Source: an uncultured delta proteobacterium (lineage in GTDB: Bacteria > Desulfobacterota > Binatia > UBA9968). Taken from it: a DNA stretch of 64,000 nt. Shown here piece after piece: positions 32,499 through 64,000 of this stretch. The stretch lies in the NCBI GenBank assembly GCA_963760795.1, contig CAVXEP010000003.1, positions 196,179-260,178 of the forward strand. The letters are read 5' to 3'. Below the pieces are notes generated by a model that saw nothing but the letters and a program-made list of their open reading frames with translations, did not search any database and had not been told where the DNA came from. Within the stretch, counting starts at the first letter, position 1, and each line of letters begins with the position of its first letter. Both the position numbers and the translations under genes were made by a program.

Positions 32499-32535
32499 CC
32501 TAGTCGCGTAAAACGTTAATAGTTCGAATGCGGCC

Positions 32536-38522: not shown

Positions 38523-38529
38523 TCGCCAT

Positions 38530-41563: not shown

Positions 41564-41636
<73 letters not shown>

Positions 41637-45817: not shown

Positions 45818-45836
45818 TCCTTCGGTTCTCGCGGAT

Positions 45837-46564
45837 ACGTGGTTCTCGACGGCGGATCGACCGACGCGAGCCCAGCGATCATCGAGCGATACGGCGACCG
45901 GCTCGCCCGCTGGTCGAGCGGCCCGGACGATGGCCAGGCAGCCGCGGTCGATGCCGGCTGGCGGTCGGCCACGGGCGAGATCCTCGCCTGGCTCAACTCC
46001 GACGACTGCTACACGCCCGGGACCCTCGCGCTTGTCGGCCGCTGGTTCGCCGATCACCCCGACCGCGGCTTCCTGTACGGCCGCTGTCGCCTGGTCGACT
46101 CGGACCGCGTCCCGCTTGGCGTGATCGGCAGCCGCTACAGCCGAACCAGATTGCTCTTCTCGCACCAGATGATCCCTCAGCCTGCCGCCTTCCTGCGCCG
46201 ATCGCTCGTCGAACAAGCCGGCTTCATCGACAGCCATCTGCGCTATTCGATGGACTTCGACCTGTTCCTGCGCGCGGCGGAACTCGACCGGCCGGTCTTC
46301 CTGCCACACACACTCGCCGAGGCGACCGTCCATGGGGCCGCCAAGACGACAGCGGAGGCAGACATGGCGATGGACGAGACGCGGGCGCTCCGGCGGCGTC
46401 ACGCGCGCGGCGCGGAACGGGTCGTCGTCGCGCTCCAGCCCGCGAGCTCGATCATCTATCACCGGTTGCCAAGGACCGGGCGGCGGTTCGTCGACCGGTT
46501 TCGTGCAGCTCGCGTCCGGCAAGTCGCGCCCACATCGGACGATCGCCGGCCGAACACGGACTGA
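45837..46564 (+). CDS. glycosyltransferase family 2 (5' truncated)
   Basis: VLDGGSTD, PDDGQAAA, GEILAWLNSDD, QPAAF, MDFDLFLR. Confidence 0.88.
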
Positions 46565-46607
46565 CCCGAGAGCGGACGGCCGGGCCTGACTGGTACGCTC
46601 TCCGCCA

Positions 46608-47972
46608 ATGGACCGACTCGCACCGCCGCCCGGTCACCATCGTCGGCGCAGGCTACGTCGGCCTCGTCAGCGCAGTCGGATTGGCGAACCTCGGACACCG
46701 GGTCCAGCTCGTCGAAACCGGGCGGACGCGGCTGGCGGCGCTGCGCGAGGGTCGGATCCCGATCCACGAGGCACGGCCTCCAGGAGGGCTTCGACGCGGC
46801 CGTCGCCGCGGGCGGTTGACGCGTCGCCGACGCGGTCCCGCGCGGACGCGGCCATCGTCCTCATCTGCGTCGGGACGCCGATCGGCGACGACGGCCAGAG
46901 CGACCTCAACCAGCTCGACGCGTCGCTGGCCGCGATCCGCGGGCGGCTCGGCCCGGATGCCATCCTCGTCATCCGCAGCACGCTGCCGGTCGGCGGCACG
47001 CGACGCTCGGTCGAGGCGACCGGCCTGCCGACGAGCCGGATCTTCACGAACCCCGAGTTCCTCCGCCAGGGCACGGCGGTCGACGGACTTCGCGCCACCC
47101 GACCCGCATCGTCGTCGGCCGCTTCCCGGACGCCGACCCCGAGCGCGCTCGCAGCGGTCGATCGGTCTGTACGACGGTCGTCGAGGCGCCGCGGCTCGTG
47201 GTCGATGTCGAGGCGGCCGAGATCATCAAGAACGGCGCGAACGCCTTCCTCGCCCTGAAGCTGTCGTTCACGAACGAGATCGCGTCGCTGTGCGAGGAGG
47301 CGGGCGCCGACGTCGACGAGGTGCTCGACGGGATCAGCGCCGACCCGCGCATCGGGCGGACGTACATGCCGCCGAGCTTCGGGTTCGGTGGCAGCTGCCT
47401 GCCCGAAGGAGCTGACCACGCTCGCCGTCGCCGGCCAGGCCCTGGGCCTGCCGATGCACGTCACGACGGCGGCCTCGGCCGCGAACCTGGCCGCACAGGA
47501 CCGGTTCGCGGAGCGGGTCGCAGGCGCGTTGGGCGGGCGCCGACGGACGGACGATCGCGCTGCTCGGGCTCGCCTTCAAGGCAGGCACGGACGACATCCG
47601 CGATTCACCCGCGATCCGGCTCGCCGACGCGCTCTGCTGGCCGACGGCGCGACCGTCCGCGGCTACGACCCGGCCGCCGGCGGGAACGCCGCGGCGAGCG
47701 TGCCCGGCCTCGACGTCGTCGACGACGCGGCGCAGGCCGTGGTCGGGGCGGACGCCGTCGTCGTCACGACCGAGTGGCCGGAGTTCCGCGACCTGCCGTG
47801 GGCGACCTGGGCGCATGCCGGGCGCGTCGCCGCTGATCATCGACGGACGCCGGCTCCTCGACGCGCGGCACTTCGCGCGGCCGGCTATCGCGTCGTCCAG
47901 CTGGGCGACGGACGCAGACCTCAGGCCGGATCGGCGTCCCCGGTCCCGCCCTCGGCGAGGAACGCCCCGTAG
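46608..47972 (+). CDS. UDP-glucose/GDP-mannose dehydrogenase (several frameshifts, probably sequencing errors)
   Basis: VGAGYVG, ICVGTP, IRSTLPVG, NPEFLRQG, AEIIK..ANAFLALKLSF.NE, GFGGSCLPK, LGLAFK.GTDDIRDSP across frames. Confidence 0.88.
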
Positions 47973-49181
47973 GCCGCGACCAGCCGCTCGGCCGAGCGCC
48001 TCCCAGCGCAGATCGAGCTCGTCGATCCGGCCGACCGGCGGCGCTCGGTCAGGACCGGCGAGGGCGTCCCGGTCGTCGGCGAGGCCGGCCAGCGACGCAG
48101 CCAGCCCCTCCGCCGTGGCGTCGTCGACGATGCGCCCCGCGTCGCCGACGATCCGCGATCGTCTCGGCCAGCGCGAAGGCGACGACCGGACGACCGATGG
48201 CCAGGTACTCGACGACCTTGGTCATCGTCGACACGTCGTTGAACGGCGTCGGCGGGTCGGGCGAGACGCAGAGGTGCGTCGCCGCCAGGATGCGGAACGA
48301 ACGCCTCCGGGCGGCGATAGCCATGGAATCGACACGCGATCGGCGATCCCCAGCCCGGCGGTCCGGCGCCTCGAGCGCCGCGCGCGCCTCGCCGTCGCCG
48401 ACGAGGTCGACCTCGACACGTCGAGGTCCGGCCGGGCGATCCCGCAGCGACGGCGACCGCGTCGAGCAGGATCTCGACGCCGTCCTGCGAGCCCATCACC
48501 CCGAGGTAGCCGAGACGCAGCGTCCGTCGGTCGGCGCGGTCGATCCCGGCGGCGAGGGCGCGGAACCGATCGCCGGGCGGGGCGTTGCGGACGACGACGA
48601 TCCGATCCGCGGCGACGCCGCCGCGCGTCGGCGGCGAGCGCGCGTACGACTCGTTCGGGACGATGACCGAGAGGCAGCCGTGGCATACGACGCACGCTCG
48701 AGCGTCCGGGTCAGGCCGGACGAGGAGCCGACCGCTCCGTCGGTCGCCCCATTTCGTGATCGCGAGCTCCGGGTTGGCGTCGTGCTGGTCGTACACGTAG
48801 CGACCGCCCAACAGCCGCGCCGAGGCGACCGAGGACGAAGAAGAGGTCGGGCGGGTTGCAGCCGTGGACGACATCGATCCGTCCACGCAGCCGAAGGGCG
48901 AGCAGCCAGGCGGTCGCTGAAGAGCATCGAGGGCGACGTACTCGACGAGGTAGCCGGCCAGGCCGGTCGCGGCCCGCTGCGGGTAGCGCAGGAGCCGGAT
49001 CCCGTCCCGGATCTCGACGAGACCGGCCCATGTCGCCCTCGCCCCGCGCGCGAGACGATGGTGACCCGGTAGCCGCGCGGCGACGCAGCGCCTGGGCTTC
49101 CTGCCAGACGCGCCGATCGAGCGGGACCGGCAGGTTCTCGTCGAGGATCACGACGTGCGGGCGGCCTGAGCGCGTGCGCAT
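47921..49181 (-). CDS. glycosyltransferase family 4 (frameshifted)
   Basis: ENLPVPLDRRVWQEA, HGCNPPD, YDQHD..PEL, YLGVMGSQDGV, NDVSTMTKVVEY. Confidence 0.85.
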
Positions 49182-50285
49182 CCTCGTCGATCTCCAATCT
49201 GTACCCGAGCCCGGCCCATCCGGGATTCGGGACCTTCGTCGAGGCGCGCGTCGCCGCGCTCGAGGCCGCCGGGGCCGAGGTCCAGCGTCGAGGCCAATCC
49301 GGGACCCGGCCGTCCACCGGCGCGTCGCGGCGAAGTATGCCAGCCTCGCCGTCCGCGGTCCGGACGTGACCGCCGTCCGTCGCCCGGCTGCGGCGGTCGG
49401 CGCATCGACGTCGTCGAGGCCCACATCGCCTACCCGACCGGGCTCATCGCACGGCCGACCGCGGCCGCTCGCTGGGAGCGCCGCTCGTCCTGTTCGCCCA
49501 CGGCGCCGACGTCGATGACCATCCCGGCCCGGTCACGGCGCCACGCACGGCTCGCGCGGTCGACCTACCGGGCGGCCGACCTCGTCGTCGCCAACAGCTG
49601 CGTTCCTGGCCGGCGAGATCGCGCGGCGGTACCCGGACGTGGCGGCTCGGGTCCGGGTCCTGACACCCGGGATCGAGCTGCGACCGGTTCACCGCCGCGA
49701 TCGGCGGCAGTGGCGCCCCGCGGCCGGGGATCCTGTTCGTCGGCCGGCTCATCCCGGAGAAGGGCGTCGACGTCCTCATCCGGGCGATCGCCGCGCTCGA
49801 CGCAGCGGCGGCCGCGAGGCGTCGGCCGGCTGACGATCGTCGGCGACGGCCCCGAGCGCGCAGCGCCTGGCCGACCTCGCCGACGGCGCTCGGCGTCGAC
49901 CTGGACGATCGACCGGCGACGTCGGCCGCGACGCTGGTCGCCGCCGCGATGGCGCGGACGCTCGTCACGGTGCGGTCCCGTCGGTCTACCGCGAGCCACT
50001 CGGACTCGTCGCCCTCGAGGCCATGGCGGCCGGCGCGATCGTCGTCGCGTCGGCGACCGGCGGACTGATCGAAACGGTCATCGATGGGGTCACCGGCGTT
50101 GACGCGCGCCGCCGGGCGACGTCGACGCACTCGCCGCGCCATCGAGCGCGCACTCGGGCTCGCGACGGACCCCGTCGCCGGCCCGGCGATGCGGTCGACG
50201 GCTGGCTGAGCGATGGCCGCCTCCCACGACGTCCGACGGGCGGCCGAGGCCTCGCTCGGCCTGGTATGGCACTCTACGCCGATGA
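49174..50285 (+). CDS. glycosyltransferase family 4 (frameshifted)
   Basis: SNLYPS..HP.FGTFV, FAHGADV, FVGRLIPEKGVD, EPLGLVALEAMAAG..V.....GGL.E.V.DG.TG. Confidence 0.8.
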
Positions 50286-51674
50286 ACGCGGCCGACGTGT
50301 CGACCGCCAGCGCTCCTCGCCGTCGCCATCGCGATCGTCGTCATCGGCCTGCTCGCCGGCCGCTGGATCACCCGCCGGACCGACTGGGCGCCGGCCGCCG
50401 GGATCGCCCTCCTCGTCGCCACACCGCTCGTGCCCCATGTCCCGGTCGTCGGCCGGACTCAGCCTCGACGACATCCTGCCGCTGCTCGGGCATCGCGTAT
50501 CTCGCGACCGGCGGTCGACCTGTCGCGCCTCCGGCGCGTCCGCGTCCCGTGGCTGCTGGTCGTCGGCGTCGCGCTGGCGATCGCCGCCGGGATCGTCAGC
50601 AGCATCTGGTGAACGCGACGTCCCCCGCCCAGGCCGTGACGATGCTCCTGCGCTCACCCGGCCGCTACGTCTTCCTCGCGGTCATCGTGGCCCTCGTCGC
50701 CCTGGCCGAGCCGGCCGACCGGCGCGGCCTGCTGACGGCGCGCGCGATGGCCCTCCTCGGCACGCGCCGAGGCGGCCTTCGGGCTGGCCGCGTTCTTCCT
50801 GCCGCTCGGCGGGATCGGCCTCGAGCCGACGCGCAAGTTCTCGGTCCTCTACTTCGAGGTGCCGGGCCGGATCGCCGGGCACGCTCGGGATCTCACCGAA
50901 CTTCCTCGGGGCGATCTTCGTGCTGACGATCATCCTGACGGCCGGGCTCGCGATCGAGGCCCGCGATGGTCGCCAGCGCGCGTTCCTGTGGGCGTCGATC
51001 CTCGCTCCAGACGCTGGCACTGACCCTGACCTTCACCCGCGCCTCGCTCGGCCTCGCCATCGTCGCGCTCGCGGTCCTGCTGCTTCTCCGCGGGCGGGTC
51101 CGTTACATGGTGCCGGTCCTGCTGGTCGTCGCCGCTCGGGTTCGCCACGACGCCGAGCGCCGCGCCGCCACCCGGCTCCGCGCCGTCCACGCCCGCGCCA
51201 CCGGTCGCCGTCGTGCGCCTGACCAGTGACGTTCCCGACAGGCTCGCGCTGTGGTACGCGGCGACGCTGATGATGATCGACCACCCGCTCACGGGAGTCG
51301 GGCCGGGTCGGACGATCCAGCTCGCCCAGAACGTCGACCGCTACGAGGACACGCCGTTCGGTGCGGCCGAGAGCAGCGCCCACAACTCGGTCCTGCTGGC
51401 CGGGGCGGAGACCGGCGTCATCGGGGCGCTCGGGGCGCTGCTGGTCAACATCGGCTTCGCGCTGGCCGCGCTGCGGATCCTGGTCCGGGCGCGCCGGCCG
51501 GCGGTCGCCGGCGATCGAAGTCGCGGGCGCCGTGGCGGTCCTCGGCTACCTCGCCCAGGGGATGGTCAACAACCTGTTCAACGTCGCGGCGGCGGGTGCC
51601 GTCTTCGCGGTCGTCGCCGGGGCATACGTGGTCAGGCTCGAGGCGACCTCAGCCGAACCGTCAACGGTTGGTGA
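50282..51674 (+). CDS. O-antigen ligase/polymerase-family membrane protein (frameshifted)
   Basis: Multiple TM segments, R..GTLG.SPN.LG, LTFTRAS, DRL.LW..A..M..DHPLTGVGPG, SAHNS.L. Confidence 0.75.
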
Positions 51675-51687
51675 CCGACGATGCCGA

Positions 51688-52384
51688 TCAGTTCCAGCGG
51701 GCGCCGACCGGACCGCCGGTCGAGCTCAGCCTGTAGGCGGGCGACGTCCGGTCGATCGTCAGGTAGAACGCGGACACCGGGTCGTACGACAGGAACCCGG
51801 GGTCCAGGTACTTGACGCCGCTGTAGTACTTGACCGTGCTGGAGCTGTTGCGCGTCTTGATGCCCGCCGAGTAGTAGATGGTGTTGCTCATCTTGATCGA
51901 CGCCCCGCTCGCGGCGTAGAAGTGATAGCCGGCCGACGAGCGGATGACCGAGTTGCGGATCTTGATCGAGCCCTTCTTCATGTAGAAGGTGCTGTGCGAC
52001 TGGGTCTTGACGGTGCCGGTCCGGTAGAAGGTCTCGTGGTCGAAGATCTTGCCGTAGGTGTACGACTCGGACGCGACGCCCTTCTGGTTGTCGACGTAGG
52101 TGTTCCGGTAGAACGTGATGGCGCCCTTGCCCTGGGTGGTGTTGTACTTGCCGTCCCACAGGACGACCGCCGTGTCGTTGCCGCTGAACGTGTTGTAGCG
52201 GATGGCGTTGCCGGTCAGAGCCTTGCCGCTCGAGCTGATCTGGTAGAGCATCAGGCCCCGCCGGTTGCGCTCGATCAGGTTCGATTGGATCGTGTTGCGG
52301 TTGGCGCCCTGCTCGATGTCGATGCCCTGCACGTAGCCGCCGTACTGGCCCTGGTTCGACGGCACGTCCTTCCCGCCGCGGAAG
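51688..52384 (-). CDS. right-handed parallel beta-helix repeat protein, C-terminal part (5' truncated)
   Basis: Repeats such as GIDIEQGANRNTIQSNLIERNRRG and GNAIRYNTFSGN; C-terminal DPGFL..YL....SPA. Confidence 0.7.
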
Positions 52385-52385
52385 C

Positions 52386-52889
52386 GAGAACGTCGCCCGC
52401 GAGCAGCTCTCGCCCGTCGAGGAGGCGCGCGCCTACGCGTTGCTCCTGGACGAGTTCGGGCTGGCGCTCGGCGAGATCGGTGAGCGCGTCGGCCGCTCCA
52501 AGCCGTCGGTCTCGAACCGGCTGCGTTTGCTCGAGCTGCCCGACGACGTGCTCGCGATGCTGGAGCGCGGTGAGCTCTCGGAGGGCCACGCGCGCGCGGT
52601 GCTCGCCGTGCAGGGTCACGAGGACCGGCGTCGGCTCGCGCGCTTGATCGTGCGCCGCGGCCTGTCAGTCCGGGCGGCCGAGCGCGCCGCACGCTGGGCG
52701 GGAGCGCGCACCAAGCCCCGCCGCCCGCGCCGAGCGCCGCCCGATCCGGCGCTCGCCGAGCGAGCTCGTACCGCCGCAGAGACGTTGACCGGCCTGAGCG
52801 CCCGCGTCGCGGCCGGCCGGCTCGAGATCCACTTCGCCGACGAGCACGATCTCGCGCAGCTCGCCGAGGCGCTCGAGCAGCGACCGTAA
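52386..52889 (+). CDS. parB: ParB/Spo0J partition protein, C-terminal part
   Basis: ENVAREQLSPVEEARAY, VGRSKPSVSNRLRLL.LP, LSEGHARA.L, GLSVRAAE. Confidence 0.9.
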   Translation, partial: ENVAREQLSPVEEARAYALLLDEFGLALGEIGERVGRSKPSVSNRLRLLELPDDVLAMLERGELSEGHARAVLAVQGHEDRRRLARLIVRRGLSVRAAERAARWAGARTKPRRPRRAPPDPALAERARTAAETLTGLSARVAAGRLEIHFADEHDLAQLAEALEQRP

Positions 52890-52934
52890 CCACCTGCGCG
52901 CCCCGGGCGTTAGGGGTCCATGCATGCGGCGTGG

Positions 52935-53168
52935 ATGGAGGATCTCGAGTCCCTGCAGGAAATCGCGGAGAACGATTCCGCGAGACGCCTGTTCCTGCGC
53001 ATGGCGCTGCTCTCTCGCGAGGGCCGGCTCGAGCCGTTCCTGACCGAGCTCGAGGCCGACGACGAGCTCGACGACGGCACGAAGGGCGCGGTCGCGGAGC
53101 TCGCGAACGACAGCTCGTTCCTGGCCGCGGTCGAGGAATACCTACGCTCGACGCAGCGGGTTCACTGA
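52935..53168 (+). CDS. hypothetical acidic protein
   Basis: Clean ORF with GC3-rich codon usage between parB and the tRNA. Confidence 0.6.
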   Translation: MEDLESLQEIAENDSARRLFLRMALLSREGRLEPFLTELEADDELDDGTKGAVAELANDSSFLAAVEEYLRSTQRVH

Positions 53169-53197
53169 GCGGGGCCTCGGCTACAATCGGCCGCCCC

Positions 53198-53271
53198 GGG
53201 CGATTAGCTCAGTTGGTTAGAGCGCCGCTCTGATAAGGCGGAGGTCCATGGTTCGAATCCACGATCGCCCA
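53198..53271 (+). tRNA. tRNA-Ile (GAT)
   Basis: GGGCGATTAGCTCAGTTGGTTAGAGCGCCGCTCTGATAAGGCGGAGGTCCATGGTTCGAATCCACGATCGCCCA; TACAAT -10 box at 53182-53187. Confidence 0.95.
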
Positions 53272-53290
53272 CCTCGCTGCACGCCCCGGG

Positions 53291-55087
53291 TCAGTCGAGC
53301 TGGTCGGCTGCGGCCCGCTCTGCCGGGGTGAGCGGAGCCGGGGCGAGGCTGGCGACCCACGAGGGAGCGAAGAGCTTGAGGTAGTCCGGCGACGGGCGGT
53401 TGAGCGTGCGGTCCGTGGGCCGGACTCCGCGGTCGCCGGATGTCCCCATCCAGAGCAGGGTTCCGTAGGGGAGATCGAGGCGGGGGAGCTGACTGCGTCC
53501 GGTCGGCGCGTCGAAGCTGGGGTTGCTGACGTCCTTCGTGTACGAGCGGCCGGCGAGTTGCGTCAGCGCTGCCTGCCAGGACGCGGCGACGCCGGGTTCG
53601 CCCGGCGCGGCGAGGTCGATGACATCCAGCCCCGCCGGCGCCACGTGCGGCGCGAGCCGGCGGGCGCCTCGTCCCATCGCGACGAGTGCCGTAACGCCGC
53701 TGTTCTGCGCGGCGAGACGGCGGAGCAGCTCGCGGTGCAGAGCCTGGACCTGGGGGTGGTCCACGAGGGCGTCGCGTTTCGCGGCGGTGAGATCGAGCGT
53801 GTCCACCGGCAACGTGCGGATGATCAGATAGCGGCGCGTGAGCCCGGCGGCGTCCAGGAAGCCCTGGAAGCGTTGGCCCGCGTCGCCGGAGAGGGCGCGG
53901 GCGGTGAAGACGTCGTCGTGGGACGTCTGGTCCGCGAGGACGATCAGGCTGAGCTGGCGGAAACGGCCGCGGTAGATCGGCCCGACGCCGAACGAAGCGT
54001 GAGATTTGACGCCGAGCGATTCGAAGTTCGGCCACGCGAAGCCGGACTCGCCGCCGAGCAACAGTCGCGCGAGGTTGCTGGGCGGACCGGGGTCGAACGC
54101 CTTCGGTTTGGCGCGGGGCGGCTCGTAGGGAAGCTCGCCGGGACTGTCCTCGTAGCCCTCGCGGCTGCCGCCGGCCGTCGAGGGATCGCTGAGTCGAGCG
54201 CCGGCCGCGTTGTACTTGCCGGCGGCGGAGAACAGCCGAATGCCGCGTTGCGCGTCGCTGCGGTTGCTCGACGTGCCGCCTCGACCGAGGCGGGGGCAAA
54301 CCCCGAACGGAAAGTCGCGGAAGGGGATCGGCGCCGACGAGTACTGGTACGGGGCGTTGAGGTTGCGCGGCACGCCGGGATCGGCAGGGAGCCAGCCGGC
54401 ATCGTCGTCGATCCAGTCCTTGATCAGCGCGACCGCTCGGCGGAAGTCGGCCTTGATCGCCGCCGTCCCGCCGCCGGTGCTGGCGCCGCCGGGGTGGAGC
54501 ACCCCGACCAGCCGCAGCCGATTCGGCAGTGAGCCGAGCGATGCCTGGTGCAAGCGGTCGGGATCGGCCGAGCCGCCGTGCGCCTTCACCCAGGTGGCGA
54601 TCGACTCCTTCGCAGCGCGGCCGACAGCGACCACGAGTCGCCCGTCGCCGTCGACGACCGCCTTGTCGAGGATCCGATGCCGGTGCGTGACGATCGGCGA
54701 GCGGGAATCCTGCGCGAGCGGCCGCAGTGCGGGGGTGTACTGCCCGAAGATCGGGTAGACGAACGAGTTCAGGAACAGGTAGGAGCGGTCGAGGCCGATG
54801 TGGCGCAGGAAGTGCTGCATGCGCGCGCCCGTGCCGCCGGTGAACGAACGGTGCGAAAGCGACTCGTCCTGCGCGCCCTCCTGCCCGACGAGCACGACCC
54901 TCGCCGAGCCGTCGAGCCGGCCGCGGAAGAACATGGGCCCGTGGTGCCAGCGAAACGCCTCCTTCCCGAGCACCGCGCGACCGAGGCCGCGGTAGTTCGG
55001 GGTCTCCGCAAAGAGCTCCGCCCAGCCGCTCGTCGCCGGGGGGCCGGGATCGTGCTCCCACATGTCGCCTCGCAGGTCTGCCACCAC
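53291..55087 (-). CDS. protein with two tandem uracil-DNA-glycosylase-superfamily domains
   Basis: Domain 1: RGRLDG.ARVVLVGQEG..DE....F.G.TG.R...FL..IG, then VLHPG. Domain 2: YRGRF....LIVLADQ...DD.....L.G.AG.R...FL.AAG. AAGGAGG RBS before GTG 55087. Confidence 0.75.
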   Translation of the reverse strand: MVADLRGDMWEHDPGPPATSGWAELFAETPNYRGLGRAVLGKEAFRWHHGPMFFRGRLDGSARVVLVGQEGAQDESLSHRSFTGGTGARMQHFLRHIGLDRSYLFLNSFVYPIFGQYTPALRPLAQDSRSPIVTHRHRILDKAVVDGDGRLVVAVGRAAKESIATWVKAHGGSADPDRLHQASLGSLPNRLRLVGVLHPGGASTGGGTAAIKADFRRAVALIKDWIDDDAGWLPADPGVPRNLNAPYQYSSAPIPFRDFPFGVCPRLGRGGTSSNRSDAQRGIRLFSAAGKYNAAGARLSDPSTAGGSREGYEDSPGELPYEPPRAKPKAFDPGPPSNLARLLLGGESGFAWPNFESLGVKSHASFGVGPIYRGRFRQLSLIVLADQTSHDDVFTARALSGDAGQRFQGFLDAAGLTRRYLIIRTLPVDTLDLTAAKRDALVDHPQVQALHRELLRRLAAQNSGVTALVAMGRGARRLAPHVAPAGLDVIDLAAPGEPGVAASWQAALTQLAGRSYTKDVSNPSFDAPTGRSQLPRLDLPYGTLLWMGTSGDRGVRPTDRTLNRPSPDYLKLFAPSWVASLAPAPLTPAERAAADQLD

Positions 55088-55174
55088 TGCCCTCCTTGCC
55101 GCGCTCGATCGTACGCCACCGGGATCGCCCGGTCGAATCGGTTCGCGCGTTCGTCGGGCCGGCGCGACACGCCG

Positions 55175-55193
55175 TAGACTCGGTGACAGGAGG
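55175..55193 (+). promoter_or_regulatory. -10 box (TAGACT) and RBS (AGGAGG) of the amidohydrolase gene
   Basis: Motifs lie directly upstream of TTG 55199 in the divergent intergenic region. Confidence 0.5.
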
Positions 55194-55198
55194 AGCCC

Positions 55199-56608
55199 TT
55201 GGCCGAATCGTCCGATCCCGAGCAGAGCCTCTTCGAGGCCGCCTACAGCGCCACGGTCGCCGAGGCGATCGCGCCGCCGGCACGCGGAGAGATCGAGCTC
55301 GCCCCCCGTGCCGCCCCCACCGAGGCGGTTGCGCTCCGCGGCTACGTCCTGACGCCGACTCAGGCGATCGAGAACGGCTATGTCGTCATCGGTCCGGGCA
55401 AGGAGATCAAGGCCGTCCAGACGGCGAAACCGCAGGGCGTGCGGGTTCACGACACGGGTGGCGTGATCCTGCCCGGCCTGATCGACCTCCACGGCCACCC
55501 GGAGTTCAACATCTTCGCCGCCTGGGAGCCGCCGAGGCAGTTCGCCGAATCGCTACTCCTGGCGCGGCTCGCGAGCTCTACAAGGAGCTCGTGCGCGGCC
55601 CGCAGAACCGGCTCCTGCAGGAGCTGCCGGCGAAGACGCAGCTGCGCTACGCCGAGATCCGCGCACTGGTCGGCGGGGTGACGGCGATCCAGGGCACTGG
55701 CGGGCAGGCCACGAGCTACCAGGACGAGGCGCTCGTCCGCAACGTCGACAAGTGGATCTTCGGCGGCCAGGTCGGCCGGTCGATGATCGACCTGCCCTCC
55801 GGCGCACTGCGGCAGCCGGAGCTCGACTCGATCCTGACGGGGATCGCCGCCGGCGAGGTCAAGGCCTTCTACATCCACCTGGCCGAGGGCCGTTCCGACA
55901 ACGAGCGCTCGAAGGGGGAGTTCGACCGGCTCGTCGAGCTGAACGCGCTCACCGTCGGACCGTGTCATCCACGGCACCGCGCTGACGAAGGACCAGCTCT
56001 GGCGACGTGAAGGACGCGGGCGCCAAGCTCGTCTGGTCGCCGCAGTCGAACCTGCGCCTCTACGGCGAGACCACCAGAGCCGCCGACGCGCTCGAGCTCG
56101 GGCTGCCGTCGGGCTCGGCGCGGACTGGCTGCCGAGCGGCTCGACCAGCCTGCTCGCCGAGCTCAAGGTCGCCCGCCGCGACCTCGTCGACCAGGGGCCA
56201 GGCCGACGGCCAAGAAGCTCGTCGACATGGTGACCCGCGACGCCGCCGAGCATCGCCGGGCTCGAAGACAAGCTCGGCACGCTGAAGGAGGGCCGTCCGG
56301 CCGACCTCGTGGTGCTCGAGCGCCGCGAGGAGGACCCGTGGGAGAACGTCGTCGAGGCCGACCCCGGCTGGGTCGAGCTGGTCATGATCGACGGCGACCT
56401 CGCCTACGGTCGCGCCGACTGGCTCGAAGCGCTCGACCGATCCCGCTGCGCCGAGGGCCTCGAGCCGCTCATCGCCTGGGGCAAGCGGATGCTGCTCGAC
56501 ACGAGCTACGCGGCCAGCCCGGGCAGCTCGACGGCACCGACGAGGCTCGCCAAGCTGCGCGCCGACCTGATCAAGGAATACCCGCAGGTCGGCCCGATCT
56601 TCGCCTAG
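55199..56608 (+). CDS. metal-dependent amidohydrolase, nucleoside/nucleobase deaminase type (frameshifted)
   Basis: PGLIDLHGH (HxH), IHLAEG (HxxE), IHGT, WSPQSNL.LYG.T, GADW.PSGS, G.L..G..ADLVV across frames. Confidence 0.85.
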
Positions 56609-56624
56609 CAGCCGGCGACGCGGC

Positions 56625-57626
56625 TTACGCGAGCATCGTCTCGGGATCCTTCTCCGGCAGGGGGAAGTCGCCCTTTGGCGGCTCGGGCGGCTTCGGCGTC
56701 CAGCCCTCGACCAATCCCTGGATGAACGCGCACCGCTTGGGACTCGACTTCTCGAGGCGGGGCCTGTCGAGGAAGTACAGCATCACGCTCTCCGCGAGAT
56801 CCTCGCCGGCGCTCGTCTGGCCGTAGTCGGTCGGCGGCGGCTCCGCGTCCTTCTTGCCGCTTGCGGTGTCCGCGTCGCGCCAGTAGTCGAACGTCTTCAC
56901 CCAGTCGGCCTCGGCGTAGTCGAAGATCCCGTGCGCGATCTCGTGGACGGCGGTGCCCTCGATCTGCTTGTCGAGGTCGGCGAAGTCGGGCGTGGCCGTC
57001 TCGCCGTGCTTGTACATGGCGAACGTCTGGTAGCTCCCGAAGTAGGTCCCCATCACCGACGGCTTCCAGACCGTTTTTCCCTCCTTGACGCCGAGCCTCG
57101 TCTCGAGCTTGCCGATGGCGACGAGCTCCTGGGGGGCGGCGGCGCGGGTCGAGAACGCCCGTGCTGCTCCGAGCACACGGGAGAAGTGCTTGAGCGCCCG
57201 CTCGACCGCCCGCAGCTCGCGGTAGAGCCACGGCCGGGTCTTGATCTTGTCGAGCATCGCCTTCGGGGCCGACTTGTTGCCGCCCTTGAGGGCTTTCATC
57301 GCCTTGAGCGACGAGACGTCGATGCCGTAGCTCGACGAGATGTTCTTGATGATCCGCGCGGCGTCCTTCTCCTCGGCCTCGCTCGCGACGATCACCTTCT
57401 CTCCCGCCACGGTGGCCTCGTAGGTCTTCGCGCCGAAGAACATGCCCACGCGATCCCAGAACGTGGGCGCGCGCTGCATCAGGCCGGCGACGGCCTGGTT
57501 GCCAGCGGCTTGCTGGAGGGCGAGGACGTTGGCGGTGGCTGAGGGGACCGGTGCGGCCGTCGATACGCGTGGCGCGTCGACGGCCTGCTCTTGGCCGTGC
57601 TCTCGACCGCTCACCGAGCCGGACAC
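56625..57626 (-). CDS. HEXXH zinc metalloprotease-like protein, copy B
   Basis: VHEIAH plus YG.TSAGEDLAES; N-terminal LALQQAAGNQAV. Confidence 0.8.
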   Translation of the reverse strand: MSGSVSGREHGQEQAVDAPRVSTAAPVPSATANVLALQQAAGNQAVAGLMQRAPTFWDRVGMFFGAKTYEATVAGEKVIVASEAEEKDAARIIKNISSSYGIDVSSLKAMKALKGGNKSAPKAMLDKIKTRPWLYRELRAVERALKHFSRVLGAARAFSTRAAAPQELVAIGKLETRLGVKEGKTVWKPSVMGTYFGSYQTFAMYKHGETATPDFADLDKQIEGTAVHEIAHGIFDYAEADWVKTFDYWRDADTASGKKDAEPPPTDYGQTSAGEDLAESVMLYFLDRPRLEKSSPKRCAFIQGLVEGWTPKPPEPPKGDFPLPEKDPETMLA

Positions 57627-57694
57627 TTCGAGAGGAGTCTTCTCGCCGCGGAGCGGTCTGTCAACGGTCCGTGATTCCTGGGCCGACAGGCGGC

Positions 57695-58144
57695 TCAGCG
57701 GATCCGCTCGGGCGGCTCCTTGTAGATGCGGGTGCGGTACTCGTCGAGGGTCGTCGGCGGGAAGATCTCGACGATCTCGACGTGCTCGCCGTCAGTGGCG
57801 AACGCGACGCCCTGATCGGGATAGACGAGCAGGGAGGAGTCCTCGCCGGTGCGGGAGCTGAGCGTCGCCGCCGGCTCGCCCAACGCCTGGCGCAGCTCGT
57901 CCGGATCGTCGTCGGCGAGCGCGCTTCGCGGGATGTAGATGATCGCCAGGTCGTCGCCGCGAAAGAAGAAATGGCCGGGAAACGCGCTCGGCTGGTAGAG
58001 GGCGTCGACGCCGTCGAGCCGCTCGTACGCCACATCCGGATCGACTCCGCTCTCGTCGATTCCGAAGCGATCCTGCACCTGCTCTCTCGTCAGCTCCCGG
58101 AGCGCGAGCAGTTCGTCGAGCTCGTAGCCGGCGATGCGCGTCAC
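57695..58144 (-). CDS. acidic hypothetical protein translationally coupled to protease copy A
   Basis: GTG start overlaps the stop of copy A (GTGA); 149 aa, rich in Asp/Glu. Confidence 0.75.
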   Translation of the reverse strand: MTRIAGYELDELLALRELTREQVQDRFGIDESGVDPDVAYERLDGVDALYQPSAFPGHFFFRGDDLAIIYIPRSALADDDPDELRQALGEPAATLSSRTGEDSSLLVYPDQGVAFATDGEHVEIVEIFPPTTLDEYRTRIYKEPPERIR

Positions 58145-59141
58145 GCGAGTGCGGTCTCGGGATCCGGATCCGGCAGGGGAAAGTCGCCCTTCGGCGGCTC
58201 GGGCGGCTTCGGCGTCCAGCCCTCGACGAGTGCCTGGATGAACGCCGCCCGTAGCGGGCACTTCTTCTCCAGCTGCGGCCGATCGAGGAAGTACAGCATC
58301 ACGCTCTCCGCGAGATCCTCGCCGGCGCTCGTCTGGCCGTAGTCGGTCGGCGGCGGCTCCGCGCCCTTCTTGCCGCTTGCGGTGTCGGCGTCGCGCCAGT
58401 AGTCGAACGTCTTGACCCAGTCGCCCTCGGCGTACTGGAAGACCCCGTGGGCGATCTCGTGGGTGGCGGTGCCCTCCATCTCCTTCTCGACGGTGGCGAA
58501 CACCGGCCTGGCCGTCTCGCCGTGCTTGTACATCGCGAACGTCTTGTCGGCGGTGAAGTACGTGCCGAGGACGGTCGGCTTCCAGACCGTCTTGCCCGCC
58601 TTGACGCCCAGCCGCGTCTCGAGCTTCCCGACGGCGAGGATCTCCTGGTCCGCCTTCGCTCGCGTCGACAACAGGCGTCTGAGGCCGAGAATGGGCGCGA
58701 AATGACCGAGCGCCCGCTCCAGGGCCTTCAGCTCCTTGAAGAGCCAGGGTCGGGTCTTGATCTTGTCGAGCATCGCCTTCGGGGCCGACTTGTTGCCGGC
58801 CTTGAGGGCCTTCATCGCCTTCAGCGAGGAGACGTCGACGCCGTAGTCGTCGGTGATCCGCTTGATGATCGCGCCGGCCTCCTTCTCCTCGGCTTCGCTC
58901 GCGACCATCACCTTCTCGCCGGCGACGGTGGCTTCGTAGGTCTTCGCGCCGAAGAACATGCCGACGCGATCCCAGAAGGTCGGCGCGCGCTGGATCAGGC
59001 GTGGCGACCGCCGGTTGCCGGCGGCCCGCTGGAGCGCGACCAGGTCGGCCGCGCCGGGCGCGACTGCGGCTTCCGAGCGGCGCGGGCGGGCTCCCGGCCG
59101 GCCGTCTGCCGGGGCTCCCGGTCGTGCTGGGGAGCGGACAC
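58141..59141 (-). CDS. HEXXH zinc metalloprotease-like protein, copy A (N-terminus frameshifted)
   Basis: THEIAH plus YG.TSAGEDLAES; LVALQRAAGN leader; paralogue of 56625-57626. Confidence 0.8.
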
Positions 59142-59236
59142 GACTCGAGTCTCCCGAGTGCCGGCCGGGCTGTCAACCGCACCCGCCGGAGTGAGGTTCG
59201 ACCGTGGGAGGGCTGAGCTAAGCTGACTGAGGCGCG

Positions 59237-59743
59237 ATGATCGAGATGGTCATCTACGGGGTCAGCTTCGACCTGGTCGGCAAGCAGCCGATCGTGCTGC
59301 TGAAGACCGCTGACGGGAACAAGTTCCTGCCGATCTGGATCGGCCATCCCGAGGCGGCGGCGATCCTGATGAAGCTCCAGGGGGCGTCCACCCCGCGGCC
59401 GATGACGCACGACCTCGTGGCCGACATGCTCGAGCAGCTCGACGCCCAGGTGACCCGGATCACCGTCACCGAGCTGAAGGAGAACACGTTCTACGCGAGC
59501 ATCACCGTGGCGCAGAACGGCTCCGAGATCGAGATCGACTCGCGGCCCTCCGACGCGATCGCGCTCGCCGTCCGCGCCGAGGCCCCGATCTACGCGAACG
59601 AGCGCGTGATCGAGGAGTCGGCGATCGAGTTCGAGGGCGAAGAGGTCAACGAGGAGGAGATCGTGGACGAGTTCCGCAAGTTCCTCGACGACGTCTCGCC
59701 CGACCAGTTCGCCGTCGAGGAAGACGACGGCGAAACCCGCTAG
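59237..59743 (+). CDS. bifunctional nuclease family protein (DUF151)
   Basis: PIVLL, LPIWIG..EA.AI, RPMTHDL, IDSRPSDAIALA.R. Confidence 0.93.
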   Translation: MIEMVIYGVSFDLVGKQPIVLLKTADGNKFLPIWIGHPEAAAILMKLQGASTPRPMTHDLVADMLEQLDAQVTRITVTELKENTFYASITVAQNGSEIEIDSRPSDAIALAVRAEAPIYANERVIEESAIEFEGEEVNEEEIVDEFRKFLDDVSPDQFAVEEDDGETR

Positions 59744-60380
59744 ATCGCCACTGAAACGGTCAGCGCGAAGCCGTTGAAGGCGGCGTGCAGGAGGATCGGC
59801 GGGTAGACGCTGTCCGTGCGCTCCCGCAGGAACGCCAGGCCCATTCCGAACAGCGCCAGGATCGGCAGCGCCTCGATCAGCCCGTGCGCGAGACCGAACG
59901 CGACGCCGACCCCGACGATCGCCGAGGCCATCCCGTAGGGCCGGAGCAGGCTGTAGCCCAGGCCGCGATAGGTGAGCTCCTCGACGAGGGGCGCGATCGC
60001 CGACGACGACGATCGTGTTGGCGGCGAACGCGGCAGCGCGGTCGGCGTCCCAGCCGGACGGCGTCAGGCCCTGCTCCTCGCCGGCGTCGAGGAAGGGGTC
60101 GAGCGCGGCACCGACGATCAGCACGAGCACGAAGACGCGAAGCGCCCAGCCGAGCGCCCGGGCCCAGGACGCCGGCGGCCGCAGCGCGAGCAGCTCCCGC
60201 GCCGGGCGCGCCGCTCGCGATCAGCAGCACGAGGCCGAGCACGAACGCGTAGACGATCGCGGCCGAGGCGGCGGTGCCCCACTGGTAGAGCGCGTCCTCC
60301 GGCGGGCGCCCTCCCGCGGCGCGGCTCGAGTACGCGAGCAGGGCGAGCACGCCAACCAGCACCCACCACCACGTCAGCCG
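59740..60380 (-). CDS. CPBP (CAAX/Abi) intramembrane metalloprotease (frameshifted)
   Basis: APLVEELTYRG, FGLAH, HAAFN motifs. Confidence 0.85.
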
Positions 60381-60399
60381 GCGGGGATCGCCGCCGGGT

Positions 60400-61651
60400 C
60401 TACGCCACCCACTGCCACAGGGCCCACTGTGCCACCGAGACGCCCAGGAGCAGCGCGCTGACCGCCACGATCGCCGTGTGGACGCGCCCGTTTCGGCCGA
60501 GCCAGGCGAGCGCGAGGAAGAACGGAAACACGACGAGGCCGAATCGCGGCAGCGACAGCAGCGGCCAGCGCTCGCTCGGCACGCTGAGCGGGATCGCCAG
60601 GCTCGCCGCGCAGAAGAGCCCGTACGGCGCGCCGAACCGGCGCCAGGCGACGACGGTCAGCAGCGACGAAGCAGCGCGAGGTAGGCGAGCCCCTGCAGGT
60701 TGAGCGCGGCGACACGATCGGGGTCGCTGTTCTGGACGGCGCTCCAGTAGACGTGGGCGTCCGACCCCGAGGCCAGCTGCCGGACTCCGGCCCAGCCGGC
60801 ACGGAGCCCGTCCCAGATCCCGCCGAGCGGCCCGACCGGCGAGAGGTGCCGCGTCCAGATGTCCTGCGCGCGCATGAACGCCCACGGGTCGCCGACCTCG
60901 CGCCAGAGGTACAGCGGGTAGAGCGCGAAGATGGCCGGCGCCGACCGCCAGCGACGCGAGCGCGCGCCCTCGCTGCGGTGAGCGCCAGGCGAGCAGCGCG
61001 AGCGCCGGGCAGGAGTGCGAAGCCCGCCGGCCGCGTGAGCAGCGCCAGCCCGGTCAGCGCGCCCGCTCCGAGGAAGCGGCCCACGCTCGGCGGCGAGGAA
61101 CGCGCCGAGCGTGAGCAGCAGGAAGAGCGCCTCGCTGTAGACGGCCTGCAGGAAGAAGGCCATCGGGAAGACGGCGAGGTAGAGGACGGCGCGGCGGGCG
61201 CCCTCCGCTCCGAGCCGGCTCTCGGCGAGGCGGTAGAGCAGCACGAACGCGCCGAGCGCGGCCGCCAGCGAGACGAGGATGCCGGCGGTCACGTAGTGGC
61301 CGCCCGAGCGCCCGCCCGCGCCAGGCCGACCGCGGCCGGGTACGCGGGATAGAAGGCCGCGGCGGCCCGCTCGACCGAGCCGTAACCGTCCTCGGCGATG
61401 CGCAGGAACCAGACGCTGTCCCAGCGGGCCCAGACGTCGGTCAGCAGCCCGAGATCGCGGGTGACGGCGGGGTCGTCCCACTCGTCGGCCCGCGGGTGGC
61501 GGTTCGGCTCGAAGACGAGCAGCGCGAAGACCGCGGCCGCCCAGATCGCCGCACGGCTCCAGAGGAAGATCTCGACCGCGGGACTGAGGCCGCGGCCGGC
61601 CGCCGGAGCCGAGCTTCGGACGGCCTCCGAGCCCGTTGAGCGACGTCCCAC
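60400..61651 (-). CDS. GT-C mannosyltransferase-family membrane protein (PIG-V-like, frameshifted)
   Basis: WARWDSVWFLRIA..GY, AFYP.YP, FP..FFL.AVYSEALF, TRP.G, SLPRF....FP. Confidence 0.82.
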
Positions 61652-61689
61652 GGCGCCCGATCCTAGATGCGGCGTATAGCTCCAGGCCC

Positions 61690-62103
61690 GTGGCGCCGCG
61701 CTACTTCACCGCTCGAGCAGGCGAACGCGGCCCTCGCCGAGGTGCGACCACTGGCCGAGCGGATGGTCGCTCACCGCGCCAAGGTCGCCGAGCTGCTCGA
61801 GCCGCCGCGCCGGGCTCACGACCACGATCGCCGGCAACGGCGGCGACCTCGACCCCGGCGAGCTGGCGCGGGTCGAGGCCGAGATCGCCGAGCAGGCGAA
61901 GGGAGTCGCCCGCTGCGTGAACGAGATCCACGGCCTCGGCGCGCAGGTCAAGGACGCCGACGAGGGGCTGGTCGACTTCCCGGCGCTCCGCGGCGGCGAG
62001 GAGATCCTCCTCTGCTGGAAGCTCGGCGAGGACGAGATCGCGCTTCTGGCACGACCTCGAGCAGGGCTTCGCCGGCCGCCGGCCGCTCGACGACGAGCTC
62101 TAG
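61690..62103 (+). CDS. DUF2203 family protein (frameshifted)
   Basis: FT.EQAN, VKD...GLVDFP, LCWKLGE..I.FWH....GFAGRRPL. Confidence 0.85.
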
Positions 62104-62128
62104 GAGCACTCACGCCCACCGTCGAAAG

Positions 62129-62866
62129 ATGGAACCCGTGGAGTGGGAGCGGATCATCACCGCCGCGGTCGTCATCGTCGTCACGCTGCTCGCCGCGCGG
62201 CTGATCGACCGGCGCATGGCGCGACGCGGAGCTGGCGCCCGAGGCGGTCACGCGCTACCGCGTGCTGCGCCGGAGCGTGACGGCTGCGATCGTCGCCGTC
62301 GGCATCCTCTCGGCGCTGCTCGTGATCCCGCAGGTGCGCGCGGTCGCGGGCGCGATCCTGGCCTCGGCCGCGGTGATCGGCCTCGTGCGTCGGCTTCGCG
62401 GCCCAGAAGACGCTCGGCAACTTCATCGCGGGGCTGCTGATCGCGTTCACGCCAGCCGCTGCGGATCGGCGACCAGGTCGAGGTGGACGGGACGGCCGGC
62501 GTCGTCGAGGAGATCGGGCTGACCTACACGTTCATCCGCACGCGGGACGACGTCAGGCTCGTGATCCCGAACGAGAAGCTGGCCTCGGATACCATCAAGA
62601 ACGCTTCCATCGTCAGCCGCGACAAGCTGGCCCAGGTGACTCTCAACGTGCCTCTCGACAAGGATCTGTCCGCCGCGGTCGACGCACTCCGCGGGCTGGT
62701 CGACGACGCGCCGCGAGGCGCCGTGCTCGTGAGCGAGCTCGGTAGCGACAAGGCGGTCATCACCGTGCGCGCCTCGGCGGACGACGCGGCCGCCACCGAG
62801 CAGCTCGAGAGCGAGCTACGGCTCCAAGCGCACGAGCGTCTCCGGACGGCGGGAGTGCTCGCGTGA
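62129..62866 (+). CDS. small-conductance mechanosensitive channel MscS family (frameshifted)
   Basis: GFAAQKTLGNFIAG, P.RIGDQV, G.VEEIGLTYT.IRT.D....IPN. Confidence 0.85.
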
Positions 62867-64000
62867 GCCCGCGCGACCGCCCGCCGCGGCGCGCGCAGGG
62901 CCGCCGACCCGCTCGAGCTGCGGCGTCCAGCGGCGCCGACGCCAGCGCCAGCAAGTCCCGCAAGCACCGGCGGCCGCAAGCTCGCCTTCCTGATCGTCCT
63001 GCTCGTGCTGCTGACGGCGATCGCGGGCGGGGTCGCGAGCCTGGGCGGCGCCTCCGAGATCAACAAGCGCTGCGACCTCGACAACCTGCGCCCGGTCGCG
63101 ATCGGCCAGAACACCTTCGTGTACGCGGCCGACGGCTCGTTCCTCGGGCACGATCCCGGCCGAGAAGAACCGCGACGCCCGGTCGAGCTGCGGCCGATCA
63201 GCCCGTGGCATGCGCAAGGCGATCGTCGCGATCGAGGACCGCCGCTTCTACGAGCACGGCGGGATCGACGTGCGCCGGGATCCTGCGCGCCGCCTGGGCC
63301 GACGTCCGGGCCGGCAAGGTCGTCGCAGGGCGGCTCCACGATCACGCAGCAGCTCGTCCGCAACCTCTACATCGGCAAGGAGGTGACGCTCGAGCGCAAG
63401 GTGACGGAGGCGTGTCTGGCGATCAAGCTGAACAGCCGCTGGTCGAAGAACCACATCCTCCAGGAGTACCTGAACCAGGTCTACTTCGGGAACCACGCCT
63501 ACGGCGTCGAGGCCGCCGCCCAGACGTACTTCTCGCGGCGCTCCCGCAACCTGACGCTGAACCAGGCTGCCCTGCTCGCCGGGCTGCCGCAGGCGCCCTC
63601 GGTCTTCGACCCGTTCAACAAGCCCGAGCGCGCGCTCGCGCGCCGGAACACGGTGCTGCGCGCGATGCTCGACAACGGCGACATCACCCGCGCGCAGTAC
63701 CAGGCGGCGATCGCCGAGCGCGACCTGGGCCTGAAGAAGGGCGTGCTCTACAAGCGCATCCACGAGCCGTACTTCTTCAGCTACGTCCGCGAGGAGCTCC
63801 TGCGCGAGTACGGCGCCGAACACCGTCCGCTCCGGCGGCCTGCGCGTCTACACCACGATCGACAGGCGCTTCCAGAAGCTGGCGCGGAAGGCGATGACCG
63901 ACACGCTCTTCTACAAGAGCGACCCCGCGGCCGCCGTCGTCTCGATCGACCCGCAGACGGGCGCGATCCGCGCGATGGACGCGGTCATCCCGGAAGAACG
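62863..64000 (+). CDS. class A penicillin-binding protein (transglycosylase/transpeptidase), partial and frameshifted
   Basis: IEDRRFYEHGGID, GSTITQQLVRN, RK..E, ILQEYLNQVYFG..AYGVEAAAQTYF, A.LAGLPQAPS. Confidence 0.92.

Follow-up and report, generated by a model that had tools for sequence, protein, structure and literature searches.

Blr0248 of Bradyrhizobium diazoefficiens (BdiUng, PDB 5GN2) belongs to the uracil-DNA glycosylase (UDG) superfamily. According to the available part of its published description, the enzyme is a dimer that prefers single-stranded DNA and removes uracil, 5-hydroxymethyluracil (5-hmU) and xanthine; its motif A reads GQDPA, D57 and H168 are catalytic, and M92 and N94 line the pocket (Chembazhi et al. 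2017, PMC5449639). The family is characterised both biochemically and structurally. Here we analyse a relative of BdiUng that is encoded in a 64-kb stretch of bacterial DNA (the window), which forms the final 64 kb (positions 196179-260178) of contig C3 of a metagenome-assembled genome (MAG). The gene encodes a 598-aa protein with two UDG-fold domains and lies head-to-head with a gene for a deaminase-type amidohydrolase (AH). Sequence comparison of related loci places the glycosylase in an accessory, horizontally spread module, with the AH as its constant partner and a peptidase of MEROPS family S41 as its frequent third member. In the window only the glycosylase is intact, while the AH is broken and the peptidase is absent. 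The glycosylase class is known; new here is the single-chain tandem form with dedicated partners. The functions that we assign below to the tandem form, the AH and the peptidase are predicted.

The gene and its two domains are located as follows:

53291..55087, minus strand: intact gene for the tandem UDG-fold protein; open reading frame (ORF) of 598 aa from GTG 55087 (597 aa from GTG 55084)
54188..55087, minus strand: N-terminal BdiUng-like UDG domain, residues 1-300, defined by phmmer, VIA and the conserved catalytic positions
53294..54091, minus strand: C-terminal diverged UDG-fold domain, residues 333-598, defined by VIA and the internal duplication

The UDG reading frame stays open to 55498 at the longest (735 aa), and GTG 55084 is the likelier start because the relatives are ~595-596 aa long and begin with MAD. 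The protein matches the Pfam UDG family (PF03167) in two stretches, with an E value of 5.3e-11 and 43.2 bits against a cut-off of 24.3. An AlphaFold model built on 40 relatives has a pLDDT of 89.9 and a pTM of 0.89. When the model is aligned to solved structures with VIA-align, both predicted halves adopt the α/β/α sandwich fold of the UDG superfamily, with Z scores of 22.8 and 13.1. A previous sequence-only reading of this DNA had described a 598-aa protein made of two UDG-like domains. The intact ORF, Pfam, the model and VIA agree with this description for both halves.

The N-terminal half is closest to BdiUng. The best solved relative by sequence is 5gn2 (phmmer E 3.7e-21, query residues 40-175), and family 4 UDG and UdgX entries appear in the sequence search only at E values of 0.015 and above. 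The top Foldseek match of the model is likewise 5gn2 (E 9.1e-15). Residues 3-291 align with chain A of 5gn2 at the Z score of 22.8, with a root-mean-square deviation of 2.9 and 27% identity; residues 1-270 of the chain are covered, and 256 of the 272 residues of BdiUng are aligned. Residues 333-518 in the C-terminal half align with 1vk2 (Z 13.1), 1ui0 (Z 12.5), UdgX 6ajo (Z 12.3) and SMUG1 (Z 10.7), and the sequence of this half gives no significant match to 5gn2 (second-stretch score -0.9). Homology between the N-half and the C-half is seen in BLASTP (E 7e-11, 30% over 152 aa). The α/β/α fold is shared with the family 4 UDGs and UdgX (1vk2, 1ui0, 4zby, 6ajo), which give Z scores of 12-14 for the N-half and 12-13 for the C-half, but the NCBIfam scores are far below the cut-offs (20.6 against 125.3 bits for TIGR00758, 25.3 against 189.95 for TIGR03914 UdgX, 16.8 against 250 for NF040953). 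The ESM Atlas returned only the proteins' own family labels.

The N-half shares with BdiUng its fold and family, the motif-A Gln, the pocket Asn and the motif-B His, and the aligned region shows no evident Cys cluster. The BdiUng residues Q56, D57, E62, M92, N94 and H168 correspond to Q69, E70, E75, F105, N107 and H198, all of which are invariant, together with P199 and G200, in 40/40 aligned relatives. Differences can be observed in motif A and in the pocket. Motif A reads GQEGA in place of GQDPA in all 40 tandem relatives; the Gln is kept, the Asp is changed to Glu70 and the Pro to Gly, and a carboxylate is retained. F105 occupies the position of M92. H198 is located in the GVLHPGG segment that follows the predicted strand 192-196, and aligns with the His of the VLHPT motif in a single-domain relative.

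The C-half deviates further. It carries the segment LADQxSxDD at the site of motif A and an Arg (R424) instead of the Asn, and it lacks a motif-B His. Residues D386, D392, R397, R424 and D429 are invariant in the 40 aligned relatives. To our knowledge, LADQxSxDD corresponds to no motif of a UDG family. The conserved residues indicate that the N-half is probably an active DNA glycosylase, and we infer that the C-half is a non-canonical domain standing in for the second protomer. While BdiUng is a homodimer of 272-aa chains, two diverged copies are present here in one chain of 598 aa, a duplication that would be consistent with a single-chain pseudo-dimer. Helix-hairpin-helix domains precede the UDG part in one of 15 long relatives that were scanned (P0157), which provides a link of the family to DNA; a lamin-tail domain is found in another.

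The partner genes distinguish the tandem protein from BdiUng as described so far: the available part of PMC5449639 does not mention an operon or an amidohydrolase. We compared 160 UDG loci, 80 from species genomes and 80 from metagenomes. Among 8000 scored sequences there are 1023 UDG relatives at E<=1e-3, and the top 120 are 72-91% identical. A gene for an AH related to that of the window is located near the UDG gene in 73/80 genome loci and 39/80 metagenome loci (112/160 in total). Its absence was scored only where at least 1.8 kb of sequence is available on both sides of the UDG gene; 30 loci are too short for this, and the AH is present in 112 of the 130 assessable ones. Four gene orders occur:

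93 loci: AH downstream of UDG, same strand
5 loci: AH upstream of UDG, same strand
5 loci: AH head-to-head with UDG, as in the window
9 loci: AH convergent with UDG

The association extends beyond adjacency. In all five genomes without an adjacent AH that were checked, a full-length AH is encoded elsewhere (profile E 1e-145 to 1e-159). Among 101 genomes sampled from the family of locus L036, tandem UDG is found in 10, AH in 16 and S41 in 15, and each of the 10 genomes with UDG holds an AH. Our own hypergeometric estimate for this overlap is ~4e-10, a value that overstates the significance because the genomes are related. In an order-level sample around L003, tandem UDG is present in 4/101 genomes. 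Both genes are kept together in relatives from many bacteria of soil and water. The sequence-only reading had taken the UDG-AH pair as a unit, to be given up if homologues did not co-occur; homologues do co-occur, side by side in four orientations and, in the 5/5 genomes checked with unlinked genes, at separate sites.

The partners are shared with single-domain glycosylases. We inspected five genomes with an AH-S41 gene and no tandem UDG, and in four of them an adjoining gene encodes a single-domain BdiUng-like UDG of 275-311 aa. These single-domain proteins keep GQDPAA or GQDAAT, as well as HPT. Single-domain and tandem BdiUng forms both travel with one AH, and usually with a CPAF-like protease too, across phylum-level labels. 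The kept linkage of the two genes, often together with a protease, suggests from genomic context that their products act in a shared pathway.

The same data bear on the possibility that the glycosylase is a stand-alone back-up uracil/xanthine repair enzyme of high-GC (guanine-cytosine) bacteria, the AH being unrelated and its adjacency being inherited synteny. In the available part of its description, BdiUng works alone in vitro and its homologues occur mostly in high-GC genomes (PMC5449639), and 18/130 assessable loci lack the neighbour. However, adjacency persists over four gene orders and several phylum-level labels while the flanks change, the genome-wide co-occurrence is 10/10 and 5/5, and the single-domain relatives have the same partners. 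A divergent AH subtype holds the same place in the lineage of the window. We consider an independent repair enzyme very unlikely and disfavour this explanation.

The AH gene of the window belongs to this divergent subtype of 473 aa and is not open. Its frame map was obtained from a three-frame translation and was reproduced by ungapped tblastn with the intact 473-aa relative at L133:949-2370:

55199..56608, plus strand: gene for a deaminase-type amidohydrolase, 473-aa subtype, interrupted by seven frame changes
55199-~55546, plus strand: AH segment 1, frame 2
~55545-55571, plus strand: AH segment 2, frame 0
55576-~55955, plus strand: AH segment 3, frame 1
55964-~55997, plus strand: AH segment 4, frame 2
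56001-56110, plus strand: AH segment 5, frame 0
~56111-56200, plus strand: AH segment 6, frame 2
~56205-56250, plus strand: AH segment 7, frame 1
56250-56608, plus strand: AH segment 8, frame 2

The frame that starts at TTG 55199 closes at 55681, and the common final stop is at 56606-56608. The motifs HGH, HLAE, IHG and GADW are all present, distributed over three reading frames, and the Pfam family Amidohydro_1 matches the final piece only. An amidohydrolase with deaminase motifs had been described at this position; the motifs are there, but an open frame is not. We compared the region with contigs from four soil sequencing runs, aligned at 85% likeness and used as relatives only. These contigs differ from the window by 1-base indels at 55954, 55964, 56000, 56107, 56184-56190 and 56247, near five of the seven frame changes. 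No indel is listed in them at the first two changes (~55546 and ~55571), and further indels at 56139/56145, 56434 and 56526 fall away from any frame change. Judged from these sequence comparisons, the seven frame changes most likely reflect errors in the consensus of a mis-joined contig tail of low quality.

In intact relatives the AH has a complete catalytic set. The metal ligands of the HxH, H and D motifs, the Glu of HxxE and the β6 His (H101, H103, H229, E232, H262, D313) are invariant in 25/25 module AHs. In addition, the family has 35 invariant columns of its own, including W124, Q167, R182, WSPxSNLxLY, E325 and K327. The nearest solved relatives are the 5'-methylthioadenosine/S-adenosylhomocysteine (MTA/SAH) deaminase 4f0r (E 6.7e-8), guanine deaminase 6ohb (7.9e-8), atrazine chlorohydrolase 4v1x (1e-6) and 8-oxoguanine deaminase 7ww2 (all within 1e-6 to 1e-8); 5hmf, of triazine hydrolase type, matches at E 1e-5. 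While the module AH shares the invariant HxH, HxxE, H, D set with the deaminase branch of the amidohydrolases (guanine, 8-oxoguanine and MTA/SAH deaminase, TRZ/ATZ), it aligns with them in the C-terminal half only, has its own signature and is often fused to a peptidase. The intact relative in L029 scores under all NCBIfam cut-offs (76.9 against 375.4 bits for guanine deaminase, 75.8 against 540 for TRZ/ATZ, 70.5 against 522 for 5'-deoxyadenosine deaminase), and the pieces of the window AH reach 12-23 bits against the NCBIfam deaminases, also under the cut-offs. The enzyme could have turned out to be a standard, named salvage enzyme, and these scores together with the 35 columns set it apart from those families.

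The 473-aa subtype is the rarer one. It is intact in L133 and L130. In both loci it immediately precedes the UDG gene, in the same orientation and without S41. The subtype is ~30-34% identical to the other module AHs, yet the UDG of L133 is 70-77% identical to its closest relatives. That so divergent an AH is still adjacent to the glycosylase in the lineage of the window supports the linkage.

The third partner is found downstream. A Peptidase_S41 protein follows the AH or is fused to it in 72 of the 92 AH loci with sufficient downstream sequence, and the fusion is common as a single ORF of 1180-1220 aa. The S41 part of the relatives matches Pfam Peptidase_S41 with an E value of 1e-18 (67.9 bits against a cut-off of 24), NCBIfam CPAF at 2e-13 to 2e-16, PDB 3dja at 5.4e-5 and CtpB 4c2h at 6e-5. 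Like CPAF (Chlamydia CT_858) and the C-terminal processing peptidases of MEROPS S41, it keeps the DLRGNPGG motif, Ser433 and His91; S433 and H91 are invariant in 17/17 sequences. The stretch at what we take to be the position of the dyad Lys reads TGAGGANVW and contains no Lys, which fits a CPAF-like Ser/His site. Unlike those enzymes, the module peptidase is fused to an AH and looks cytoplasmic, as no signal peptide is visible by eye in the N-termini. A tblastn search of the genome, window included, detected no such S41, and neither UDG nor AH has a second copy elsewhere in it. One protein query likewise found S41 in 0/5 of the genomes with unlinked UDG and AH. Two new enzyme sub-families, the AH and the S41 peptidase, are thereby defined with intact catalytic sets.

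Neither the 150 listed representatives nor the 15 long relatives that were scanned contain a fusion of the UDG itself with AH or S41. In G050, an open frame of 1045 aa was considered as such a fusion and rejected; it has a single UDG domain only, and its long N-terminal part is taken as over-extension of an ORF in high-GC DNA. A GlgE gene sits between this 1045-aa UDG frame and the AH-S41 gene of G050. In L166 (G050:C77), an AidB-like acyl-CoA dehydrogenase (adaptive-response family) is encoded at 105-2399, within a few kb of both an AH-S41 fusion and a single-domain UDG, a single case. A co-fold of AH and single-domain UDG from L164 gave a score of 0.00, which is no verdict either way.

We tentatively favour an account that falls a little short of an even chance: the intact gene would encode a single-chain, internally duplicated glycosylase of the BdiUng class that acts in one nucleobase pathway with the AH, while the S41 peptidase regulates or trims. 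In this pathway, the N-half would cleave the base-sugar bond and thereby release a base that is deaminated or altered in some other way, most likely from single-stranded DNA. The C-half would stand in for the second protomer of the dimer, and a partner or a ligand may bind to it. The AH would act on the same nucleobase, as a free base or nucleotide, and hydrolytically strip an exocyclic amino-type substituent from it; the two steps could take place in either order. The S41 peptidase would either regulate the AH or trim the substrate, if this has a peptide part. As a hypothesis at the level of the pathway only, we retain the order 'deaminate then excise' that was put forward in the sequence-only reading. 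Amidohydrolase-fold deaminases act on free bases, nucleosides or nucleotides and are not known to act on DNA; deamination inside DNA is therefore unlikely.

Several observations weigh against this account. The Glu in place of the catalytic Asp in GQEGA means that the chemistry or the substrate may differ from BdiUng. The AH is not adjacent in the 18 loci mentioned above, and L163, the fifth of the AH-S41 loci, has no UDG nearby. In L168:2897-6512 (plus strand) and L169:5004-8902 (minus strand), the AH follows genes for a caspase-like peptidase (Peptidase_C14) and a CHAT protein in an operon, with the tandem UDG elsewhere, and from these operons a protease, not the glycosylase, may be the tightest partner of the AH. 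Real gene decay could account for the frameshifts in the window; the best sequencing run contained a share of 0.10 of the words sampled from the stretch, so none qualifies as the source sample by which decay might be told from error. The account also gives no reason for the coupling of the two genes.

In another explanation, the module would handle conjugates of peptides or proteins with nucleobases, by repairing crosslinks between DNA and proteins or peptides or by breaking down or detoxifying a peptidyl-nucleoside natural product. For crosslinks, trimming of the protein could fall to the protease and unhooking of the adducted base to the glycosylase, and the TRZ/ATZ-type hydrolase would displace the remnant that is N-linked to the ring. 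This is the sole explanation that gives one substrate to all three activities. AH-S41 fusions occur in many genomes, a protease accompanies the AH even where the UDG is elsewhere, and the AH relatives 4v1x and 5hmf displace substituents from N-heterocycles. The conserved charged pocket of the C-half (D386, D391, D392, R424, D429) could hold a moiety other than a base, and the pocket of BdiUng is enlarged around base position 5, according to the available part of PMC5449639. The proposal is purely inferential, however, and genes for crosslink repair or antibiotic resistance do not recur among the annotated neighbour clusters. S41 is missing in 20/92 assessable AH loci, including those of the window subtype, and one query did not find it in any of the five genomes with unlinked genes, which would make the peptide-handling step dispensable. 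We know of no precedent for a UDG-fold enzyme acting on free nucleosides. A role in conjugate handling seems to us quite improbable.

The distribution of the module, and the exchange of its protease, raise the question of a role in conflict. An anti-phage or abortive-infection system could operate through a protease-controlled AH that deaminates nucleotides or bases. These would be incorporated during replication, and the glycosylase, of a class that takes deaminated bases out of single-stranded DNA, would riddle the DNA with abasic sites. Such a system would carry the 'deaminate then excise' logic of the sequence-only reading over to the nucleotide pool. The tandem UDG is patchily distributed, as seen in the family (10/101) and order (4/101) samples, and is spread over MAGs labelled Actinomycetota, Chloroflexota, Acidobacteriota, Bacteroidota and Proteobacteria, some of them with contigs of Mb size. 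The module is self-contained with changing flanks. Its protease is mostly S41 but is swapped for C14 and CHAT with the AH in L168 and L169, and in L058 and L051 a C14 gene immediately precedes the UDG gene. Among single loci, L034 has a STAND-type ATPase, a subtilase and a patatin nearby, L051 has phage-baseplate-like genes and L167 a serine recombinase. Uracil and xanthine, both excised by BdiUng, are both products of deamination, as far as the available part of its description goes (PMC5449639).

Known defence systems offer a possible analogy only. The effector of RADAR is an amidohydrolase-fold adenosine deaminase. Brig1, named in the sequence-only reading, and RADAR RdrB are cases in which a UDG-fold glycosylase or an amidohydrolase-fold deaminase is directed against phage DNA or nucleotide pools. 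No sequence or profile match to either was found, though no search aimed at them was made; unlike in RADAR, an RdrA-like ATPase partner does not recur nearby in the module loci. Against a conflict role, PADLOC-DB 2.0.0 (2023) returned no family at E<=0.01 for any of the five module proteins searched (UDG, two AH forms, S41 and the fused form). No neighbour cluster occurs in more than 12/160 loci, and the 36 annotated cluster representatives are regulators and metabolic genes (LuxR-type, SpoIIE phosphatase, sigma factors, NUDIX, kinases, and a nucleoside hydrolase in 3 loci, among others) rather than defence genes. C14 is found in only 4/171 loci. For a defence gene, the tandem UDG would be unusually well conserved, with identities of 46-57% across phyla and 72-91% within the clade.

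We regard a conflict function as unlikely. Its more specific form is rather doubtful: an undescribed system in which a BdiUng-class glycosylase, a dedicated AH and an interchangeable protease (S41 or caspase/CHAT) would carry out protease-gated deamination of the pool followed by destruction of DNA, the tandem form being the single-chain version of the dimer. The defence role suggested in the sequence-only reading thus found no support in PADLOC or in the flanking gene clusters, which are ordinary and lineage-specific. The neighbourhood comparison did bear out that the pair is kept across phylum-level labels, but it revealed no defence signature among the 36 annotated cluster representatives. 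In the literature searched, with incomplete coverage, BdiUng is named only in the 2017 paper and in one review, and nothing links such a glycosylase with AH and S41 partners. The shared nucleobase pathway that we favour gives the BdiUng family a concrete and testable context. If all three proteins do share a substrate, the module would represent either a new type of defence module or a new way of handling altered bases or adducts between bases and peptides. The window copy is a poor starting point for experiments, given its probably chimeric, error-rich surroundings and its broken partner gene; better loci are the intact L133 (AH and UDG) and L060 (UDG, AH and S41).

The region around the UDG gene contains two further features:

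53198..53273, plus strand: tRNA-Ile (anticodon GAT), called by ARAGORN; runs convergently to the UDG gene, at 17 nt from its stop
55088..55198, no strand: divergent intergenic region of 111 bp, with AGGAGG ahead of each start

The pair had been noted as lying beside a tRNA. The tRNA is real, but a tRNA-Ile beside the 3' end of the UDG gene occurs in 0/60 related loci. The idea that the tRNA serves as an integration site was rejected, as a neighbouring tRNA is found in none of these 60. ARAGORN also calls a tRNA-Asp(atc) at 53639-53723; this call sits inside the UDG ORF, is implausible and is taken as false.

A 111-bp head-to-head spacer with AGGAGG before both starts had been reported as well, and it can be read directly in the sequence. 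AGGAGG is located at 55096-55091 on the minus strand for the UDG gene, where AAGGAGGG lies just upstream of the start, and at 55188-55193 on the plus strand for the AH gene. A soil-metagenome contig of 2734 nt covers 53249-55954 with the head-to-head layout; such contigs are ~90% identical to the region. The layout therefore occurs in nature, independently of the window assembly. The spacer contains a palindrome that was seen by eye, CGAATCGGTTCG (CGAA-N4-TTCG), at 55139-55150. With an SOS box in mind, we note that it is presumably shorter than a LexA box.

The module genes lie in a part of the contig that differs from the rest:

45,830-64,000, no strand: high-GC contig tail of ~18 kb, ~71% GC against ~57% genome-wide, containing the whole finding

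The window end coincides with the contig end. The assembly has 6.58 Mb in 35 contigs at 57% GC, with a completeness of 88.9% and a contamination of 6.15%. The tail begins inside a family 2 glycosyltransferase (GT2) gene, which matches its Pfam profile only from position 32 of 168 onwards. At this junction (45,700-45,960), GC rises abruptly from ~57% to ~71% within the truncated gene. A frame plot of GC at third codon positions (GC3) shows that the coding frame changes every few hundred bases over 46.6-52.5, 55.5-56.3 and 60-62 kb. Few genes of the tail keep a single frame, the UDG gene among them. The frame switching in other tail genes indicates that the indel problem extends beyond the AH. 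Based on the GC composition, the truncated GT2 gene at the junction, the frame switching and the contamination of 6.15%, the tail is probably DNA of a foreign high-GC organism that was mis-joined to a contig of the 57% GC MAG, with many consensus indels.

Other stretches of the MAG above 66% GC are confined to the start of C2 (C2:1-3000), the end of C6 (C6:128001-132614) and one 2-kb window in C12. The high-GC contig ends of C2 and C6 look like mis-joined contaminant sequence. Genes resembling UDP-glucose dehydrogenase, glycosyltransferase and O-antigen ligase (46,600-52,500; 60,000-62,000) can be traced only via repeated frame switches. A fragment with the helix-turn-helix domain of ParB, lacking the N-terminal domain, lies at 52440-52889 on the plus strand and overlaps a beta-helix-like ORF at 51688-52893 on the minus strand. 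The genuine part of the latter appears lower in GC, a further sign of patchwork in the region.

Downstream of the AH gene, two paralogous ORFs on the minus strand, 56625-57626 (333 aa) and 58141-58959 (272 aa), form a tandem duplication with 84% identity over 924 nt. No Pfam match was found for either at E<=0.001. Both carry a HEIAHG zinc-peptidase-like motif, and the stretch LQQAAGNQAV is found N-terminally in the longer of the two. An intact gene with a bifunctional-nuclease (BFN) domain is located at 59237-59743 on the plus strand (Pfam E 3.8e-43). In the 57% GC host part of the window, the stretches 1-10,000 and 32,000-42,000 have ~50% GC and may be islands.

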